64,000 nucleotides of DNA from Octopus sinensis (taxonomy: Eukaryota), in NCBI RefSeq assembly GCF_006345805.1, contig NC_043001.1, forward strand, positions 98,766,001 through 98,830,000, given 5' to 3'. The notes under the pieces are model-generated. The model searched no databases. It worked only from the letters and a program-made list of their open reading frames with translations, and was not told the DNA's origin. The translations under genes were made by a program, and so were the position numbers. Within the stretch, counting starts at the first letter, position 1. The number at the start of each line of letters is the position of its first letter. Positions 5,237-43,681 of the stretch are shown here, piece after piece.

Positions 5237-5279
<43 letters not shown>

Positions 5280-11795: not shown

Positions 11796-13779
11796 TTACA
11801 AAAGTATACTGTACATTGGCTTACTTTCAGTATTCACTTGTGGGATACCATTCACAACAGCTGCAGCTGGTGCTGCTACTGCTGCTGCTCCCACATCCCT
11901 GCCTTGATCAGAAACTTCAATAACCTCTCCATTGTCACAGTTCACAGCAGCCACTACAACAGCTGGTTCAATGTGATTGTTTTCATTTGGGATTTCTAAA
12001 TTGGGAACAGGTTCAAGACCAGCGTCCTGCTCCTGCTTGTTAAGGACTTTTGATTCAGCCCCTGCAATTTCAATAATGTCTACAGTGGCAGGGATCAAAA
12101 GGGGCTCCAGTGCAACTGGGACCTCTTCAACAGAGTTTGTTCGAGTGTTATGTCTTGAAGGTGACAACAATGGAGGGGGTAGTGTAGGTGAAGGAGTATG
12201 TCTAAATGGAACGTCTTTGCTCCTGATAATATCAGTGTTCACATATTTTGATGCAGAAGAACTAAACAATTCAGGTGAATTTGTATTCTCTTGTAACTGG
12301 ATGGTGTTTTTGGCCACAATAGCTGTTTGTAATGAGCCCAAGGAAGTTCTACTGCTTGGTAACATTCCTTGAGCAACAGTTGATAATGAGGAGGTTCCTG
12401 ATGCAAGGCTACTTGAACTACAAGATTTATTCACAGTCAATGGAGAAATTCTTGCCATTGGCACAACCACAGTGTTGGCCTCAGAGATGTTCATGTAGGC
12501 TTGTTCACTTGACACCAGTTTTCTAGTAACATCAGCAGCAAGAGTAAAGGTAGGTCTTTCTGTTAACTCTCTGCCAGCACAAGACATTGAACTTCCAGAC
12601 GACATCAAAGAAGAAGGTGTTGAACAAGATGACGAGATTTCATTGCTGTATAATGGTTCACTATCATCATGGTCATCACTGTCATTATGCTCCACACTTT
12701 TCCTTGTGCCATTTGACCAGCTGGTAGTTGTTGATACATGGGGTGTAGAAACAGTTGGTACAGCACTTGTACCATTAGTGGTTTGTGAAGAATCCTGGAG
12801 TGAAGCACGTTTCTTTTGTGGTGACTTCTCAAATAGTCTTGGAACATAACGTACTTCAGCAGCAGCACTGGAGGATACAATAAAAGCAGAACCTTCACGA
12901 TCATGATCAGAATTGGCTCGAATTTTTAGAATCTCTTCAGGCGCTACATGAATCTCATCTCTTGGGTTAACACTTTTATTTGTACTCACTCCAATCGAAT
13001 GAACTCCGGTAGATGATGTTCCTGATTTACGATTGGGTGATGGTGAGGCTTTTTTCATGTCATGCATACGCATTAGGTTGCTAGACTGAGATGGTGGACA
13101 CTGAAAAATGGAAGCAGGGGAAAACTCAGCAACAATTTTCTGCTGTGAATGTTCATGTGTGTCCCAATCTCGTACAGAAGATGGCATTTTTTGTTGCAAA
13201 GCAGCACGTTTCTTACTATCTGACCAACGGAAGTGGTGCAGTCTATCAGCTTGAGTTGAATTGGATTTGCGCTGTGATCTGTCTGAGCTGTAACGGATCA
13301 CTCCGGATTTTCCACATTCAAGTCTAGCTTTTGGACGACACACCAACAGAGGGTCTTTAGATTTGTCTTCTTTTGACCTGGAAGACCTTCCTTCAGACTT
13401 ATGAACAAGACACTCAGTGTGTTTACTACGTGAATGACCGTCCCTCAGGTGTTTCTCTGAATTCTCCATCATAGAGAGCTTTTCTGCAGCTTTCATACTC
13501 GCAGCTAGAGGATCAAACTCTTTAGCTGGAAGGATTATTTCTCTTTTGTTCCGGTTATAATGCTTAGAGCGATTGCCAGAAGATAGTGTCTCTTTTGATA
13601 ATGGCACCAACTTGACTCCACTGCAATCTGAATGGGAGCTTACTTGGTTCTGAGAGGAAGTGCCAATCATGTCTTGGCATTCACTTACTAAATTTTTGTC
13701 TGTAACCCTGTGTGAAACTTTTGTAGGCTCACATTTAGCAGACAGTGAAGTTGAAATAGTTTGTTTTTGTGAACGTTGA

Positions 13780-13811
<32 letters not shown>

Positions 13812-15587
13812 ATCTGTATGGTGGGATGAATGAGATGATTTGCTAGGGCGTGTAGGTGAATGCAGTCGGGGAGGGAGAAATGGCAAATTGGGTGACACAG
13901 TAGTCGATGTTTCATGAGTGGATTGATTCTTATTTTTATCACCACTGCAATTTTCGTAAGAGTCTTTAACGATTATATACTCTCTATCTCCAGCACGGAG
14001 AGCTTCATTTGAGTTTTGCAGTTGGCTTTTTGGTCGGGAACTACTAGTCGCTTCAGGAGATTTCAGTTGGTAGTGAGCCCTGTTTATAACAACTCCAGAA
14101 AAATCATGGAAAGTAACTCCCTGTGGATTTGTTTTGCTAGAAGAAACGAGAGAAGATTTTGAATGCTGATTACCATCCTGAGTAGTTGCTTCCGAAGCAA
14201 CAGCATACATTGACTGACTATTTGTGTTCCTCAAATTTAAAGATTTGGAAATATGACAATCAGATGCCGGTCTGGCTGGAATTGATCTAGAATTCTCTCC
14301 ACATACATTTTGCTTATAATGTTTTGAAAGTTGAACATCACTCTTATTATTTCCAGATGAGCTGGAAAGTGGAGGGAGGCTGATACTTGATACAGTAGCT
14401 AGTCTGATGGGTGATGAATTAACAGTTTTTACAGTTGTTGTAGTAGTGTGTGACGTTCCAACCCCACTAGAAATCGGATGTGGATCACCATTTACTACTG
14501 GACAATTGACATACCGCTCTTGTTGAATATCACCATCATTGACTACTACTTCCCCATCACTTGTATCAGTGAGTTCCTGTATAACTTCTTCGTAAGGAGG
14601 AAGTTCATCCTCACCAAACACATTAGGAGTCAAATCATCATACTGTGGAGGGAAGTCAGTGGATGCAGCAGGCATCAGCTCTACAGCAGCTATGTAAGAA
14701 TTCTGAGAGTGGTCACTATATGTTGAAGATGGTGTACCATTATCATTATCGGTTATCCTCCGTGGTAAATCAATGTGCTCACTACGCCGTGTATTATCTT
14801 GGCATGGCTGATCATGTCTTAAATGATCTGATGATAAAAATCTATTTGTCTCATTAGAGTGACGGCTGTTTGAGGTGGCATTGTTGTTATTTCCAGTTTG
14901 AGTATGGCGTGGTGAATGAAAGCGTGCATTATGGGAACTTGTTGATGCCAAAAGTTCACTTTCTCTAAGTGGTGTATGAATTGATGCTGTCTCCCTGGGT
15001 GTATTCGACCTACTGAAAGTTCGTTCTCGAAGAGGAGTACGGGAAGTAGATGCATTATTTATACGGCTTTCGCTAGATGTACACATCAGATTGTCATTTT
15101 CTCGTGAACTCTGGTTTGATGAGCAATTATTGGCTTTTTGAAAAAACAAATACTTGATACAGACCCCAACAGAGGTCAGTGAACTAATAAAACCAAAAAT
15201 TGCTAAACACAGGGAGAAAATATGAATTATGCTAGTTGATTCTTTGGGATATTTCTTATACACGAAGCTATGTTTGTAAAAATTGCTGTTAAAATCTAAT
15301 CCTCCAGCAGATAACACAAGCATGACTGCAGACAAACAAGTTGAGATGACTGAGGTGATCAGATATGTTTTGATGGCACAAGGTCTTCGCAATTGCCCAG
15401 CTACTACACCACTTAGTCCTGACAAAAACATTGAAATGCCACACCATAAACCAGTGCCAAGATAATGGCCCCAGATTTTCTCACTGAAAGCTATTACTGC
15501 TATGATTATACTAGCAATGCCAAATATAGAAAGAATGACACCAAGCACAAATGCAGCTTTTTGCGGAAAGTCAATCCTTAATCTCAT
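11796..15587 (-). CDS. Single-exon CD20/MS4A-like tetraspan membrane protein with PY motifs and long Ser/His-rich disordered tail (ENTREP/FAM189-like)
   Basis: 1263-aa uninterrupted ORF in AT-rich DNA. ATG in AAAATG context with an in-frame TGA three codons upstream. Four hydrophobic segments in aa ~10-148, including the CD20-like 'GTGLWCGISMFLSGLSGVVA'. FPPQY and LPPY motifs, poly-His, C-terminal YSILL. Family assignment is from recalled architecture, not a search. Confidence 0.88.
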
Positions 15588-16254
15588 TTTTTTTCAATAC
15601 TTTTGTGTTGTTGTTGTGAAAGAAATATGGAAAAATGTAATGAATAAACCTCTTTGAATATTGCTTTTCAAAGCATTAGAAGAAAATTCAATCAGTTATA
15701 CTGAAGTGGTTCTACATTTCCATTATTTAGATTCTTATGTTTTCTTTTAGTTTCTTCAAGTTAAAACACATATTATACAAAGAATTCTTCTCTCCTTAAA
15801 ATGATCCATTTGTCCATTAATGTGTCAGTAAAATTCTAAGATATATTTAAAAAATGTTTTCATACCAGATACTACCTACAATTTACAGTAGTATATTTGA
15901 ATCAAACAAGCAAACATAATAAACAGAATAGAAAAAAATTAATAAAAATGAGCACCTGGAGGCATAAAATGCTAAGGTAAAAATTAAGAAATACCAATGT
16001 TTTAAAAATACCAATCAACTGCTGTAGCCATTTTTTCTTGTATATGTAATTTGGTAGTTAGTATATCTTTCGAATTTGTTCTTAGACATCAGCATGGCTT
16101 AAAGCGATTGCTTAATTAGCAATTGCAATAACAAAGTATGTAATTAAAACAAATATGACCGATGTGGTTGACCTCTGGATCCACCTGGCAGCAGTTTGTT
16201 GACAAATACAATAGATCTAACATTGCTAATTTATATACATACATACACACATTA

Positions 16255-19689: not shown

Positions 19690-21905
19690 TTATTTACATT
19701 ATTTACATTTGACGGATATTTGTCCTCATCTTGTTTGTCGTTAACACATTTCGGCTGATATACCCTCCAGCCTTCATCAGGTGTCTTGGGAAATTTCGAA
19801 CCTGGGTTCTCATTCCTAAGGTATTTTTTGATTTTATTATTATTATTGTTATTCAGGTCACTGCCTGGAATTAAACTCAGAATCTTGGGGTTAGTAGCCC
19901 GCGCTCGGGCTTATAAATCTAATATTCTCCTATCCTTCCTTAATACTGGTTCCCATATGCTATTCAAATCTGCACTTGGTCTGCTTAGGAGGTTGTTGCA
20001 TCCTAGCATATGTGCTGCTTCTTTTAGTTTTCGTATTTTCCAGTGGTGTTCTCTGTCTATTATTTTAACTTCATCCCACAAGGGAAGGTGGTCTCCATTT
20101 TTCCATATATGATCAGCTATATTCAATTTATCAATACCTCCCCATGTCACAGCTTTGCAAGGTTCTTCTACCCTTATTTTGAGGAGACGGCATGTTTTAC
20201 CTTTGTATAACCTACCAGAGCTACATGGAATGGAGTACATGCAGTTCTTGGTCATATTCTCTTCTATTGGTGGTTTTACTCGAAGGAGATATTTGTGAAG
20301 TGTTGTATTGCTTTTGAATACTGTCCTGATGTCATATGGGCCACATATCTTTTGTATCTTTTCAGAGAGGCCTTCCACATAGGGTAGACAGGCTGTGGAC
20401 AGCTTATCGGTTTCATCCTCTCTTTTCTTCATAATTGGAGTGGAGTGTATGCTTTTGAGGTAGTTGTTGCTTAATAGATTGTTATTGAGCTTAATCATTT
20501 CTTCATGGTGAGTATCATGATCACTACTTATATTCATTGCTCGATGTTTTAGGCATTGAGCAATCCCTCTCTTTACACTGTATGGATGGTGGGAGTTGAA
20601 GTCCAGTGAAGGTTGGCTTGCAATATATGGATGTCGTGAATCCATACTTGGTGCATGTTATTAATACATCCAGGAATGCTAACTGATTGTCTTTTTCTTT
20701 TTCCATTGTGAACTGTATAGATGGCTTTATTGAGTTCACATGATCTAACAGCACTTGGACATCTTCCTGGTGGGGCCAGAGTGTGAAGGTGTCATCAACA
20801 TATCGCAGCCATAGGGTTGGTTTTAGTGGTGTTGATCCTAAAGCCAAATTCTCAAAGTATTCCATGTATATATTGGCTATTATCGGTGATAATGGTGAAC
20901 CCATAGCTAAACCCTCTTCTTGTCGATATATATCAGTGTCCATACTGAAGTAGGTAGTTTCTACACAGAAGGTCAACATTTCCATCAAGTTTCTTATTGG
21001 TATACTAGTGCGTTTTTTAGATGTGTGTCTGTCTCTCTAGTTTTTCTTGAATCACTGATAGTGCTTCACCAGTTGGGACTTTAGTGAACAGGCTTATCAC
21101 ATCTAGACTCACCATCTAGTTGGATTCTATGGAGGTATCCTTGATCAATTCTGTGAAGTGGGTAGAATTCTTCACATGCGATGTTGACTTTCCTTCTAAT
21201 GGACTGATATCCACAAGGAAGCGGCTCAGTGGATGACATGCTGAACCTCTACAGCTTGCTATAGGTCTTAATTGAATACCATCCTTGTGAATCTTAGGAA
21301 GACCATACATGTGTGGTAGTTTACTGTAGCGATGAGTCTGTTGTCTGTAATTCATTGGTATAAAGTGATCCTTGTTCTTGATCAAGATCTGTGACAACTT
21401 CTTCTCTGTTTTCAAAGTAGGGTCTTTCTTTACTTTCACTTATAAGACTTGCCAGTTTTTCCGAGTAGTCAGACTTGTTCATCACCACTGTAGCTATTCC
21501 CTTGTCTGCTGGAAGTATTATGATGGAATTGTCACTCAGTAGTCTTTTGATAGTGAACGTTTCTTCCTTAGTGATGTTTGGTTTGGGAAGTTTCATTTTT
21601 TTCTAGTATCTGTTTCATTTTCCACCTTAGTTTATCTCCCTGAGCTTTTGGTGTCTTTATGGCTATCTCTTCAATATTATGTCCAAGTATGGAAAGTACT
21701 TGATGGTTGTTACAAAGTTGAGACCTTTGTTAAGTACTGCTTCTTCAGAGCTTTCTAGATGTCGGCTACTTACATTAATTACTGCTTTCACAGGTGGGTG
21801 ACGGAATGCAGTCTTCATTCTCTGACTTTTGAGTTTCATAAACTTCTTAATCTAGCATGTCTTCACCATTTCAAATTCTTTCATGTACAACTTTTCTAGA
21901 TCTTG
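19690..21905 (-). mobile_element. Penelope-like retroelement (frameshifted RT + GIY-YIG endonuclease)
   Basis: Collinear fragments: KGLNF N-terminal motif, ILPADKG, YGLPKIHK..LRPI, GLAMGSPLSPIIANIYME, LRYVDDTF, LAFLDV, and a C-terminal YSIPCSSGRLYKGKT GIY-YIG-like motif. Confidence 0.92.
19743..19785 (-). ncRNA. Degenerate hammerhead ribozyme in the Penelope 3' terminus
   Basis: Minus strand reads GACAC-CTGATGA-A-GGCTG-GAGGGTATAT-CAGCC-GAAA-T-GTGTT. Stem I, core and stem II are present; stem III/cleavage triplet is apparently deleted. Confidence 0.6.
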
Positions 21906-27586: not shown

Positions 27587-28515
27587 CAGAAATTACCAAA
27601 AACATATAATGGACAGAAACATAACAAGTAACAGCAGAATATGTGGAGATGGACAAAAAACAAGTCCTGGCTAAGAAGGATTATATTCACAGACATGACA
27701 GAGTTGGGAACTACATATCCTGGAAGCTATGCCAACACTATGGAAAAACAACAGAAAAAGATGGTATAAGCACATGCCAGAAAAGGTCACAGAAAACATG
27801 AAAGCAACCATACTATGGGATATGCCAATACACACAGACAGAGAAATTAAGGCCAATAGGCCAGATATAGTTGTCAGAGATCATGAAGGAAAAAAGGGCT
27901 TTCTAATTGATGTATCAATACCAGCAGATGACGTTTCTCTAAAAGAAATGGAGAAACTTTCAAAATACAGAGACCTGGAAATAGAGGTAACTCGAATGTG
28001 GAATCTAAAAACAGAAACAATTCCTATCATAGTGGGCACATTAGGTAAGATAAAAAAAATATTCAGACAAATACGTAACAAAAACACCAGGACTTACAAA
28101 TATATATAACATACAGACAGGCGGCGAGCTGGCAGAGATGTTAGCACACCGGGTGAAGTGCTTCGCGGTATTTCGCCCGTCGCTACGTTCTGAGTTCAAA
28201 TTTCGCCGAGGTCAACTTTGCCTTTCATCCTTTCGAGGTCGATAAATTAAGTACCAATTACACACTGGGGTCGATGTAATCGACTTAATCCATTTGTCTG
28301 TACTTGTTTGTCTCCTCTATGTTTAGCCGCTTGTGGGTAATAAAGAAACATATATAACATACAGAAAATTGTACTACTGGGCACTGCACACATCCTACGC
28401 AAAACACCTTTAATACAGTAACCATAAGAGCATCATAGCAAACCACAGCACATACCCAAGGTACCCAGAGCTGCACTCTGTAGTGAAGTGAAAGCACATT
28501 ATAAAAATAAAACTA

Positions 28516-28599: not shown

Positions 28600-29172
28600 T
28601 TGATGTAGTAATAAATGCCTTGATGCAGTACCAGGCAGTGGCTCTCATGGCTTCTGATCTTAACTGATTGGAAGTGTTATCATGTACATTGTTTTGTCTT
28701 GGTATAAAAGATGGGCTACAGCAAATATTCTGCTCAATACCACAGATTTGCTTGTCAGTTGTTTGACCTTAACCAGATGAGCATGTCCCTTAGTGGCTGA
28801 CGATATGTGCATCTCTGATCACGAGCAGAAGTAGTGGGGGAGCATCATAGCCATGTGTTGAGAGGAATTCTTTGGGGTTTGGATGATTCACCTGTGGAAA
28901 CACGGGTGGTTCTTTCAACATCCTTAAACAACCCTTATTCAGGGACCTTTTGAGCGGGATGGGCAACTCAACCTGAAGAAAATTCTAACTGGGCCCCACC
29001 TGCAAGGTCATGTGCTGTTTATCTTGATATGAGATCACCATGTCGCGCACATATGGTTGTGATGCATGTGCCTGGTGTACCTTTATCAGACGGGTAGTCA
29101 TGATGGGTATATTGGGCTTCGTATATTTTACCCCAGTGTCACTTTGATGGCATGCACTGCTCTCTCACTCAA
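28600..29172. mobile_element. Unclassified ~570-bp insertion bounded by (TAA)n runs
   Basis: Higher-GC block with sharp boundaries between TAA repeats and no ORF. Repeat status is inferred. Confidence 0.45.
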
Positions 29173-29189
29173 TAATAATAATAAGGTAT

Positions 29190-29740
29190 TATAAAATCAA
29201 AACTGCTGACAAATGGTATAAACACCATTCTGAAGCTGTGACTGAGGGAGAAAATGTGTCAATTCTATGGGACTTCCCCGTACATACTGACAAAACTATA
29301 AAAGCTAATAAACTGGATATTATTATGAAAGATCAAACAAAAAGGATGTGTTTATTAATTGACATGAGTATTCCTTGTGATCACAATATAGCGGCGAAAG
29401 AATTTGACAAGATCAGTAAATATAAAGACTTGCTAATAGAAATTGAAAAAAATGTGGCATCTCAAGGTGACTATAGTACCAGTGATTGTAGGATCTCTAG
29501 GAATGATAAAAAAAAAGGTACTGAAACCTATTTGAAAATGATACCTGGCTTACCATCCCTACAGGAAGTGCAAAAAATCGTGTTAACTGAAACTGCTCAT
29601 GTACTGAGAAGAGCATTATCACTGTGAAAACAACATCCATTCATGAATTTATTTGTTTATTAATTTTTTAAATACATATTTTACCTGTGAATTTGCGTGT
29701 GTAATCTGGAAATGCATACAACGAGCTTCTCTGCCCTAGG
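29190..29740 (+). mobile_element. Second R4/Dong-like RLE fragment
   Basis: KWYKH, ILWDFPVHTDKTIKANKLDII..KD...CLLIDMSIP...K..KYKDL, VQKIVL..TAHVLRRAL. Confidence 0.8.
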
Positions 29741-30031
29741 TGCTTATATGATGGTGATGCTCATTTACAGCTATCACATGATGTCAAGATAAATAGACAC
29801 AAATACATATAAGTGTACACATATACATGTAGATACATAAATACACAATGGGCTTCTTTCAGTTTCTGTTTTCCAGATCCACTCACAATACTTTGATTGG
29901 CTCAGGGCTAGAGAAGACACTTTTTCAAGGTGTCATGCAGTGGGAGTGAATCTGAAACTATGTGATTGGGAAGCAAACTTCTTAACTATACACCCTTGTC
30001 TGTGTGTGAGTGTGTATACATATATACAAGC

Positions 30032-30065
<34 letters not shown>

Positions 30066-30114
30066 GTGAATTGAAGAAATGGAGCTGAACGCAGATTGAA
30101 CAGAAATCGTTTTA

Positions 30115-30203
30115 TTTCATTCTACACGTGTTTCGAAAGGCACAAATTACCAAAATCCGATTGAATAATGGGACCATATTGTGTCTTTCTCTTCAGGAAG
30201 AAA
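30115..30203 (-). ncRNA. Mirror-copy hammerhead ribozyme in the left palindrome arm
   Basis: Exact reverse complement of 30381-30469. Confidence 0.78.
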
Positions 30204-30380
30204 AAAGGAAATCCGTTAGAGAAACAAAAACAGAACAGAGGCGGAGCAAAAACCAAATCGAACTATGCTCCTAAGAGCCCATGGCGAAACTGGGTTTCGC
30301 CATGGGCTCTTAGGAGCATAGTTCGATTTGGTTTTTGCTCCGCCTCTGTTCTGTTTTTGTTTCTCTAACGGATTTCCTTT

Positions 30381-30469
30381 TTTCTTCCTGAAGAGAAAGA
30401 CACAATATGGTCCCATTATTCAATCGGATTTTGGTAATTTGTGCCTTTCGAAACACGTGTAGAATGAAA
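30381..30469 (+). ncRNA. Minimal type I hammerhead ribozyme, intact core
   Basis: Stem I TTC/GAA, extendable by TTTC/GAAA with one bulge. CTGAAGA at 30388-30394. Stem II GAAAGACACAA...TTGTGCCTTTC closed by G-C. GAAA at 30450-30453. Short palindromic stem III ACACGTGT. GUA cleavage triplet at 30459-30461. Confidence 0.8.
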
Positions 30470-30702
30470 TAAAACGATTTCTGTTCAATCTGCGTTCAGC
30501 TCCATTTCTTCAATTCACCAATAATGTTTTAATTTCAATTATCCGCACCAACGCACGGTTGCAACGCCAGATGGTTGTACCTCCAACCGTGCTGTTTACT
30601 GCTGTGATTTTTGCTACTAAGGTATCGGTTAACTTTTGATTAATCTACAACAAGATTATTCATCTTTCTATTTCACATAATATATATATATATATATATA
30701 TA

Positions 30703-31990
30703 TCAGGCTGAGTAAAAAGTAAGAAACGTTTTCAAACATGAAATTCATTACAATATATTTCAACAAGACAGAAATTTTATTCATCAAAGTAAGTGCCATT
30801 ACAATCAACACATTTTTGCCAGCAAATTACAAGTTTGTTTATTTCCGTAACATAAAAATCTGGCATTCTGGAGCTAATGAACTCTTTGAATGCACTTTCA
30901 GCATTGGTTTGATTTTTGAACTCCTTCTCTCACTGGAAACCATCAAGGTGCTTGAAAAAGCAATAGTCGGTAGGAAAAAGGTCTGGGGAATAAGCTGGGT
31001 GGGTAAGAACTTCGTAGCTAAGTTCCCTCAACTTTTGGAACATCATGAGTGAAACATGTGGTCGAGCATTGTCATGAAGAACGACTGGCCCTCTTCTGTT
31101 GACCAGCCTGGAATGGAGGAGCAACAGTTTTTCATTCATTTTGGCAATTTCATGGAAATATGTTTCTGCCGTAATGGTTTTTCTGGGTTTTAAGAAGTTA
31201 TAGTGGATGAATCCAGCAGTACACCACAAAACAGTCACCATAACCTTCTTTTTGAAGAGCTTGAGTTTAGGGAAGGTTTTCAGTGCTTCATTTTGGTCCA
31301 ACCATTGTGAAGAACATCTTTTATTATTGTACAGAATCCACTTTTCATCGCAAGTTACAATATGGTCAAGAAATGGATCTGTTTGGTTATGGAGAAGAAG
31401 CAACGAGCAAATTTCATATCTGCGCATTTTCTAACTTTCATTCAAATTGTGTGATACCCATTTGTCAAGCTTTTTTGATTTTCCAATCACATGCAAATGG
31501 TTGCAGGCAGTTTTCTGGCTAACTTGAAGTTCTTTTGCCAGTTCTCAAGTGGTTGTTTATGTGGATCTTTCTCAATAACAGTCTTTTATTGACCATCATC
31601 AAATGACAGATGGGCGTCCACTATGCTCATGATCTTTAAGGCTCAGGTCTACACTGCAAAATCGTTTAAATCATTTTTGAGCTGACCACTCACTGGTCAT
31701 TTCCTCACCAAACATTTTGTTGATATTGCGAGCAGTTTCAGGTGCTTTACATCCTTTTCTGAAGTTGAATAGCAAAATTGCTCGAATATCACGCTTTAAT
31801 AGTTCCATTTCAGATGATTGTAACAATGGTGAAAATATATCAATATTAATTTATTGATGCATTTGGGCAAGTTTATGTCTGTATTATCAGACAATTGCAA
31901 AAAAATGTTTAAAAAGAATTCAAAACTCTGCAAAAATTCAGTACAAATTCTTCATGATTCAAAACATTGCTTACTTTTTACTCAACCTGA
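30703..31990 (-). mobile_element. Full-length decayed mariner (DD34D) transposon
   Basis: TIRs TCAGG(C/T)TGAGTAAAAAGTAAG at both ends, TA flanks, length 1288 bp. Transposase motifs IVTCDEKW, HDNARPH, HPAYSPDLFPTDY with stops. Confidence 0.93.
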
Positions 31991-43467: not shown

Positions 43468-43563
43468 TTTATATATATATGTGTGTGTGTGTATACATAT
43501 ATTTACATATATATATATATCATCATCATCATCATCATCATCATCGTTTAGCGTCCGTTTTCC

Positions 43564-43681
43564 ATGCTAGCATGGGTTGGACGGTTCTACTGGGGTCTGT
43601 GAAGCCAGAAGGCTTCATCAGGCCCAGTCAAGCCTTCTGGCTTCACAGACCCCAGTAGAACCGTCCAACCCATGCTAGCAT
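43564..43681. repeat. Perfect inverted repeat, 52-bp arms, 14-nt spacer, from an RTE 3' tail
   Basis: 43564-43615 is the reverse complement of 43630-43681. Confidence 0.92.

Follow-up and report, generated by a model that had tools for sequence, protein, structure and literature searches.

Insertions of Penelope-like elements (PLEs) have been described in a form that, in the parts of the published accounts available to us, combines an inverted 5′-truncated copy, a tail of 30–40 bp and a bias towards (TA)n (PMC8557442), together with a 15-bp overlap between the inverted and the direct pLTR and a proposal of self-priming (PMC3846280). Dual minimal hammerhead ribozymes on opposite strands, 100–700 bp apart, are likewise on record, with no activity of minimal hammerheads as monomers and low activity as dimers (accessible portions of PMC4209133), and Penelope-13_HM carries a hammerhead on each strand and lies in (TA)n (PMC8557442). 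The accessible sections of a biochemical study (PMC11167929) describe a PLE protein that cuts AT-rich DNA and extends both target strands, reverse transcription that starts at two internal sites by which the tail is delimited, and a hammerhead that depends on protein and without which insertion still proceeds in vitro. The head-to-head architecture that concerns us here is thus already published (PMC8557442, PMC3846280 and PMC4209133).

We analysed such a structure within a 64-kb window of octopus DNA (the window being the whole stretch analysed, at its full length), and consider it very probable that it represents a recent 5′-truncated insertion of an endonuclease-bearing PLE into (TA)n. Two arms (30065–30290 and 30294–30519), each of 226 nt, are exact reverse complements with zero mismatches and enclose a 3-nt loop, TGG (30291–30293), so that the perfect 455-bp palindrome reported by the first-pass annotation could be re-derived to exact coordinates, as could its (TA)n borders: a (TA)14 target microsatellite on the left (30037–30064) and a (TA)11 target microsatellite on the right (30681–30702), the latter adjoining a mariner end. 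We read the right arm (+ strand) as a direct 5′-truncated copy of the element's 3′ end (part of the pLTR), the left arm (− strand) as an inverted 5′-truncated copy of the same 3′ end, with its outer end at direct-copy position 30519, and the loop as an inversion joint, which differs in other copies. A tail of 159 nt (30520 to approximately 30678, + strand) follows the direct copy only, leaving the element's ends asymmetric; this agrees in length with the roughly 160 nt annotated earlier, although the uniqueness supposed there does not hold genome-wide, the tail belonging to the same repeat family as the rest of the element. Mirror symmetry ends at the element's own terminus, the two flanks being unrelated repeats that do not mirror each other. 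Three-frame translation of the direct copy gave no evident open reading frame (ORF), and the 64-kb window holds no second copy of the element. Abutting the right (TA)n is a Tc1/mariner element with terminal inverted repeats (30704–31990; transposase fragment, E = 1 × 10−21).

Set against EN+ PLE insertion units (PMC3846280; PMC8557442, Fig. 2; parts available), the locus has in common with them the head-to-head inverted copy, the small joint offset, the one-sided tail, the microsatellite target and a hammerhead near the 3′ end, whereas their tails measure 30–40 nt against 159 nt here, and the present copy has no ORF. The tail contains a predicted stem-loop (30553–30592, + strand; RNA folding) and what, by eye, could be a splice donor (AAG/GT, position 30622) with a pyrimidine tract ending in TTTCA (30619–30676, + strand). 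In Penelope an intron of 75 bp lies 46 bp downstream of the element's start (PMC2377424), and speculatively the intron of a Penelope pLTR may sit in the 159-nt tail; no spliced reads over the tail occurred among the contig pieces listed. A sigma-70 promoter scan re-found only part of the tail hairpin and was set aside as irrelevant to an animal.

Each arm carries a minimal type I hammerhead motif (30385–30464 on the + strand; its mirror at 30120–30199 on the − strand, with C3 at 30196). All core positions could be located on both strands, in line with the two divergently oriented cores, one per arm, noted at first pass; since each motif is simply the mirror of the other, together they amount to a single observation. 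On the + strand the core is complete, with C3–A9 at 30388–30394, the G10.1–C11.1 pair at 30395/30449, G12–A15.1 (GAAA) at 30450–30453, U16.1 at 30460 and A17 at 30461, the last closing a GUA triplet with predicted cleavage after 30461; judged by its sequence, the hammerhead is intact. Stem I has 3 bp (30385–87/30462–64), stem III is the self-complementary 8-mer ACACGUGU, and stem II spans 55 nt (30395–30449), closed by G10.1–C11.1. Features shared with metazoan PLE hammerheads of the minimal type I (PMC4209133, accessible portions) are the core, G10.1–C11.1, the short stem I, the palindromic stem III, flanks that are U-rich on the 5′ side and AU-rich on the 3′ side, and the arrangement of dual motifs on opposite strands. 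Its stem II is unusually long, as had been remarked earlier: the 55 nt exceed every one of the published metazoan rows compared. In Fig. S3 of PMC4209133 (56 rows) and among the 26 Hydra entries in File S2 of PMC8557442, loop II is never longer than 9–10 nt, although the descriptors behind both sets limited this length; two plant rows have loops of 29 and 35 nt.

The search with hammerhead models proposed in the first-pass annotation gave a divided answer. A hammerhead descriptor run over the 64 kb matched only at the two mirrored places, one per strand, while a single match arose in 60 Markov-simulated 64-kb sequences (0.017 per window), and no simulated match had a stem III that was palindromic. 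Rfam models, in contrast, returned no hammerhead family for 2 kb at E values up to 5 or for 319 nt at E values up to 10, the best matches being generic hairpin models of microRNAs and snoRNAs with scores under their gathering thresholds. Folding calculations found a stable stem II (z = −2.1; 5 of 200 shuffles equally good) and a whole motif that was not stable (z = −0.5), and stem I was absent from the predicted minimum-energy folds of monomer and dimer alike. When two copies were cofolded, an 8-bp intermolecular stem III formed (−10.3 kcal/mol for the 8-mer pair); because the two ribozymes occupy opposite strands, a single transcript never contains both, and dimerisation in cis does not arise. 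In the full transcript, which includes the antisense arm, the pairing probability of the ribozyme helices was 0.0 and the hairpin reached approximately −453 kcal/mol. Because the antisense arm is transcribed first in either direction, a read-through RNA cannot fold the ribozymes, and the competition between ribozyme and hairpin envisaged earlier would not be an even one. Among the copies, all 12 variable sites (at least 8% in runs X1, X6 or X2) lie outside the 35 positions of core and helices, where 1.1 would have been expected (P = 0.32), nor did we observe covariation, so that selection on the ribozyme core has no significant support.

The element belongs to an abundant repeat family: of the 22 sequencing runs listed, 20 contained 50% or more of the words sampled, covering 7 organisms and 8 studies, and some of these runs have only 5–6 Mb of contigs. 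None of the listed runs is recorded as RNA, which is uninformative about expression. Four runs (X1, X6, X2 and X8) were aligned to 29900–30800 at 85% likeness. In X1 the summed contig depth over the element was 1 × 10⁵ to 1 × 10⁶ and that of individual joints 18–477; depth of this kind is no copy number, and the thousands of copies that we consider likely are deduced from it. Comparable joints at 18–477 in these short-read contigs are too deep for single chimeric molecules, and at the locus itself the mirror symmetry reaches only as far as the element does, between unrelated flanks; a fold-back artefact of sequencing or assembly, to which arms free of mismatches and the absence, among the pieces listed, of any contig spanning the palindrome's own centre or the whole stretch might point, is therefore a very improbable source of the palindrome.

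Depth summed over both mirror halves dropped towards the centre from 1.31M to 0.20M in X1, from 445k to 72k in X6 and from 7187 to 787 in X2, a 6- to 9-fold fall in three of the four runs, with X8 flat and showing no 5′ gradient (contig depth being a rough measure); in X1, X6 and X2 this decay matches a family with a high degree of 5′ truncation. One X8 contig continues for 29 letters beyond 30291 on the upstream side, which makes the family longer than the copy in the window. Other copies enter (TA)n at 30528 (X6 and X2) and 30531 (X6), 9–12 nt past 30519, and the family thus has two end regions approximately 150 nt apart.

The joints themselves varied from copy to copy. Left-arm-to-right-arm joints numbered 35, and the 23 listed were all different. 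Among the 18 of these lying within the arms, the inner ends were no more than 25 nt apart in 14 (permutation P = 3 × 10−5) and 92–146 nt apart in the remaining 4, and the other five of the 23 connect the inverted arm to 30592–30607, in the tail, and are not closely coupled. Three of these five start at 30592–30593, the 3′ foot of the predicted tail hairpin, a cluster that may reflect stalling of the reverse transcriptase or the 5′ end of a transcript. The depth maximum of X1 also lies within 30582–30612. Four of the 23 listed joints fall near the predicted cut site (30460–30466), which we rejected as a signal of cleavage because joints can slide and only 23 of the 35 are listed. Only approximately 2–3% of X1 depth shares the window's letters at positions 30363 and 30366, and approximately 13% that at 30331, yet both arms carry all three; sharing of minority alleles in this way means that the arms were copied from one template. 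The mirror half was thus built during insertion from a single template, and the structure is neither a palindromic unit nor a retrozyme.

This bears on a rival account in which a non-autonomous palindromic MITE-like unit or retrozyme moves whole, with ribozymes used on both strands. It would accord with the lack of an ORF, the great abundance and the perfect arms, and non-LTR retrozymes have been reported as derivatives of PLE pLTRs (bioRxiv 10.64898/2026.07.22.740005, available part), being, like the element here, non-coding, PLE-related and equipped with a type I hammerhead. Those retrozymes, however, are head-to-tail tandems with same-strand ribozymes, whereas the present element is head-to-head with variable centres and has one hammerhead per strand, each buried by its antisense; a MITE-like unit would be expected to have a fixed structure with inverted repeats at both ends, in place of asymmetric ends; and a unit moving whole fits poorly with 23 different joints among those listed and with depth that decays towards the centre. 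We regard this account as quite improbable, and the description 'retrozyme-like' offered at first pass has to be dropped, there being no tandem same-strand hammerheads and no constant centre. The other half of that description, a young Penelope-like terminus that is non-coding and bears a ribozyme, is supported.

Under the PLE insertion that we prefer, the PLE protein would nick the TA run, reverse transcription would start inside the element RNA at 30678, and cDNA synthesis would halt approximately 385 nt in, near 30294. The mirror half would arise in the same event and on the same template, either as the cDNA end snaps back on itself or, alternatively, as the second target strand primes on that template within the proximal start region (30519–30531); snap-back and double priming would both give this head-to-head order and leave the same joint. 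The product would be a head-to-head unit of inverted truncated copy, direct copy and tail, in which the hammerhead, as the normal pLTR ribozyme, would travel as a passenger whose putative activity would need a dimer or help from protein, and a read-through RNA would lock it in a 226-bp duplex that ADAR could hyper-edit. Against a PLE insertion stand the 159-nt tail, the 55-nt stem II, the lack of an Rfam hammerhead match, the flat depth in X8 and the loose coupling of 4 of the 18 in-arm joints and of the 5 tail joints, among those listed.

The PLE identity is itself deduced from sequence features, and pattern scans for a link to a PLE RT/GIY-YIG ORF gave 0 in viral contigs and 0 in metagenome contigs (two scans). 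The parent might instead be an ORF-less, SINE-like or other non-autonomous retroelement with a borrowed PLE 3′ end that followed the same fold-back route. Such a parent would explain the missing ORF linkage and the failure of short probes to match any of the 4 octopus PLE consensus sequences in the available part of the PMC8557442 supplement; fold-back is, moreover, not confined to PLEs, as an RTE-like fold-back of 52 bp in the window indicates. The kind of hammerhead, the target in (TA)n, the tail and the coupling of the joints are each in keeping with PLE insertions, however, and the X8 contig that reaches 29 letters further upstream shows the family to be longer than this copy, so that we hold a borrowed 3′ end to be quite improbable. 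The fold-back in question, perfect over its 52 bp and ending in (TA)n, belongs to a 3′ end at 43546–43681 beside (CAT)n, which we take to be RTE-like, and is apparently a second fold-back in a non-PLE element; six other matches of the same family in the window have no such perfect palindrome. A further perfect palindrome, of 42 bp, lies at 5238–5279.

Among named PLE clades, the Hydra clade (Penelope-13_HM, Penelope-1_SK and Hydra-1_Obim; available parts of PMC8557442 File S1/S2) shares with the element the (TA)n target, a near-palindromic stem III of 3–4 bp with an AC start and a GU end, and, in 11 of the 25 families listed, an A at the cut site; its rows have a loop II of 3–10 nt against the 55-nt stem II here, and the hammerhead sequence of Hydra-1_Obim is different. 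Stem III, the GUA triplet and (TA)n thus resemble the Hydra clade, although the Neptune and Naiad clades favour microsatellites too and a clade assignment needs an ORF. The 3′ ends of Naiad_Ovul ('HHR_half_core') and Hydra-1_Obim were considered as the source and rejected, since four probes gave 0 matches in the available consensus sequences and the Hydra-1_Obim hammerhead differs. The probe GAAACACG occurs at six places in the accessible part of the supplement, five of which were listed, and the matches listed for those probes that matched lie in other elements; in such a search of consensus sequences, line breaks every 70 letters can hide single probes. In the openly accessible literature searched, we found no account of the family or of editing of a hammerhead core. 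The feature is real, its architecture is known, and the family is probably undescribed, although Repbase or Dfam may already list it.

A possible host response came from run X8, which is only guessed to be RNA. One of its contigs (record 30) covers 30381–30522 at depth 7.8 with 19 differences and no gaps; differences were assigned to it by matching depth, and those outside 30381–30464 fell under the listing threshold. Within 30381–30464, the 9 listed differences comprise one A-to-C, one T-to-C and 7 A-to-G changes (30418, 30436, 30437, 30452, 30453, 30461 and 30464), a share of A-to-G that has a chance of 3 × 10−6 to 1 × 10−3, depending on the transition share assumed. In the other three runs the A-to-G letters had zero depth at six of the seven positions and 10 of 590,000 at the seventh, in X1. 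All seven changed adenosines follow U or A (7 of 13 such adenosines, against 0 of 7 after G and 0 of 5 after C; P = 0.004), a neighbour bias in line with that of ADAR, and three of them, A14, A15.1 and A17, are in the catalytic core. A G-like base at position 17 blocks hammerhead cleavage. A second X8 contig has two T-to-C changes that are absent from the other runs, as editing of the antisense arm would give. Letters at 30422 and 30447 of the contig in record 30 are missing from the locus, so that contig derives from another copy. The A-to-G cluster is consistent with ADAR hyper-editing of that other copy, a hint drawn from one contig; to this extent, the first-pass suggestion of an ideal ADAR/Dicer substrate holds for ADAR.

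Strong hyper-editing in octopus and heavy editing of a lizard Penelope have been reported (PMC5625713, in part available to us), and the ADAR-edited self-folding repeat RNAs of Xenopus Harbinger and lizard Penelope in that study show, as here, depletion of G 5′ of the edited A; the putative edits here differ from them in falling on a ribozyme core and in coming from a single contig. Such editing, together with the perfect 226-bp duplex, might suggest a hairpin locus retained by the host as a small-RNA source or as an ADAR substrate that restrains the family. Perfect arms, however, speak for youth and not for conservation, many such joints exist, and the edited contig has letters at 30422 and 30447 that this locus lacks; we consider host retention extremely improbable.

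As a by-product of PLE insertion the structure is known and, by itself, ordinary. What makes the locus worth attention is an abundant young octopod family unmatched in the octopus PLE consensus set searched (accessible part of the PMC8557442 supplement), a hammerhead with a long stem II that Rfam does not see, an extensive natural collection of joints that bears on how PLE inverted ends form, and the hint that host ADAR edits a ribozyme core. A rather doubtful extension would have these belong together, as a new abundant octopod PLE family with a 55-nt-stem-II hammerhead missed by Rfam, whose fold-backs are a large source of perfect double-stranded RNA and whose ribozyme is disabled by editing at A14, A15.1 and A17. 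If that were true, published descriptors may miss hammerheads with a long stem II, and a ribozyme could be present in some PLEs taken to lack one; octopus hyper-editing would be tied to retroelement control; and the wealth of joints, those beside the tail hairpin's foot among them, could separate snap-back from double priming.

Other retroelement remnants lie in the same window. A decayed Poseidon-like PLE occupies 19700–21600 on the − strand (RVT_1 match, E = 2.5 × 10−9; GIY-YIG-like words by eye), with a decayed minimal hammerhead core of short stem II at 19780–19752, approximately 130 nt past the stop; between the stop and this core is a stretch that we take to be tRNA-like. A relationship between this remnant (19.7–21.6 kb) and the palindromic element was rejected (best blastn E = 1.1, no DNA similarity). 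On the + strand, 27699–28109 and 29148–29627, near (AAT)n, hold C-terminal fragments that presumably resemble R4/Dong-type LINE endonuclease ends; the one of the two tested against Pfam gave no match. Finally, an uninterrupted frame of 1265 codons with a long low-complexity tail (11796–15593, − strand) has relatives at 78–91% identity; its N-terminus has a weak CD20-like match below cut-off (E = 6 × 10−4), and the ORF at 11799–15587 marks the host as an octopod, its first 200 residues being 91% identical to an NCBI protein labelled Argonauta hians (4 matches among 613 candidates).
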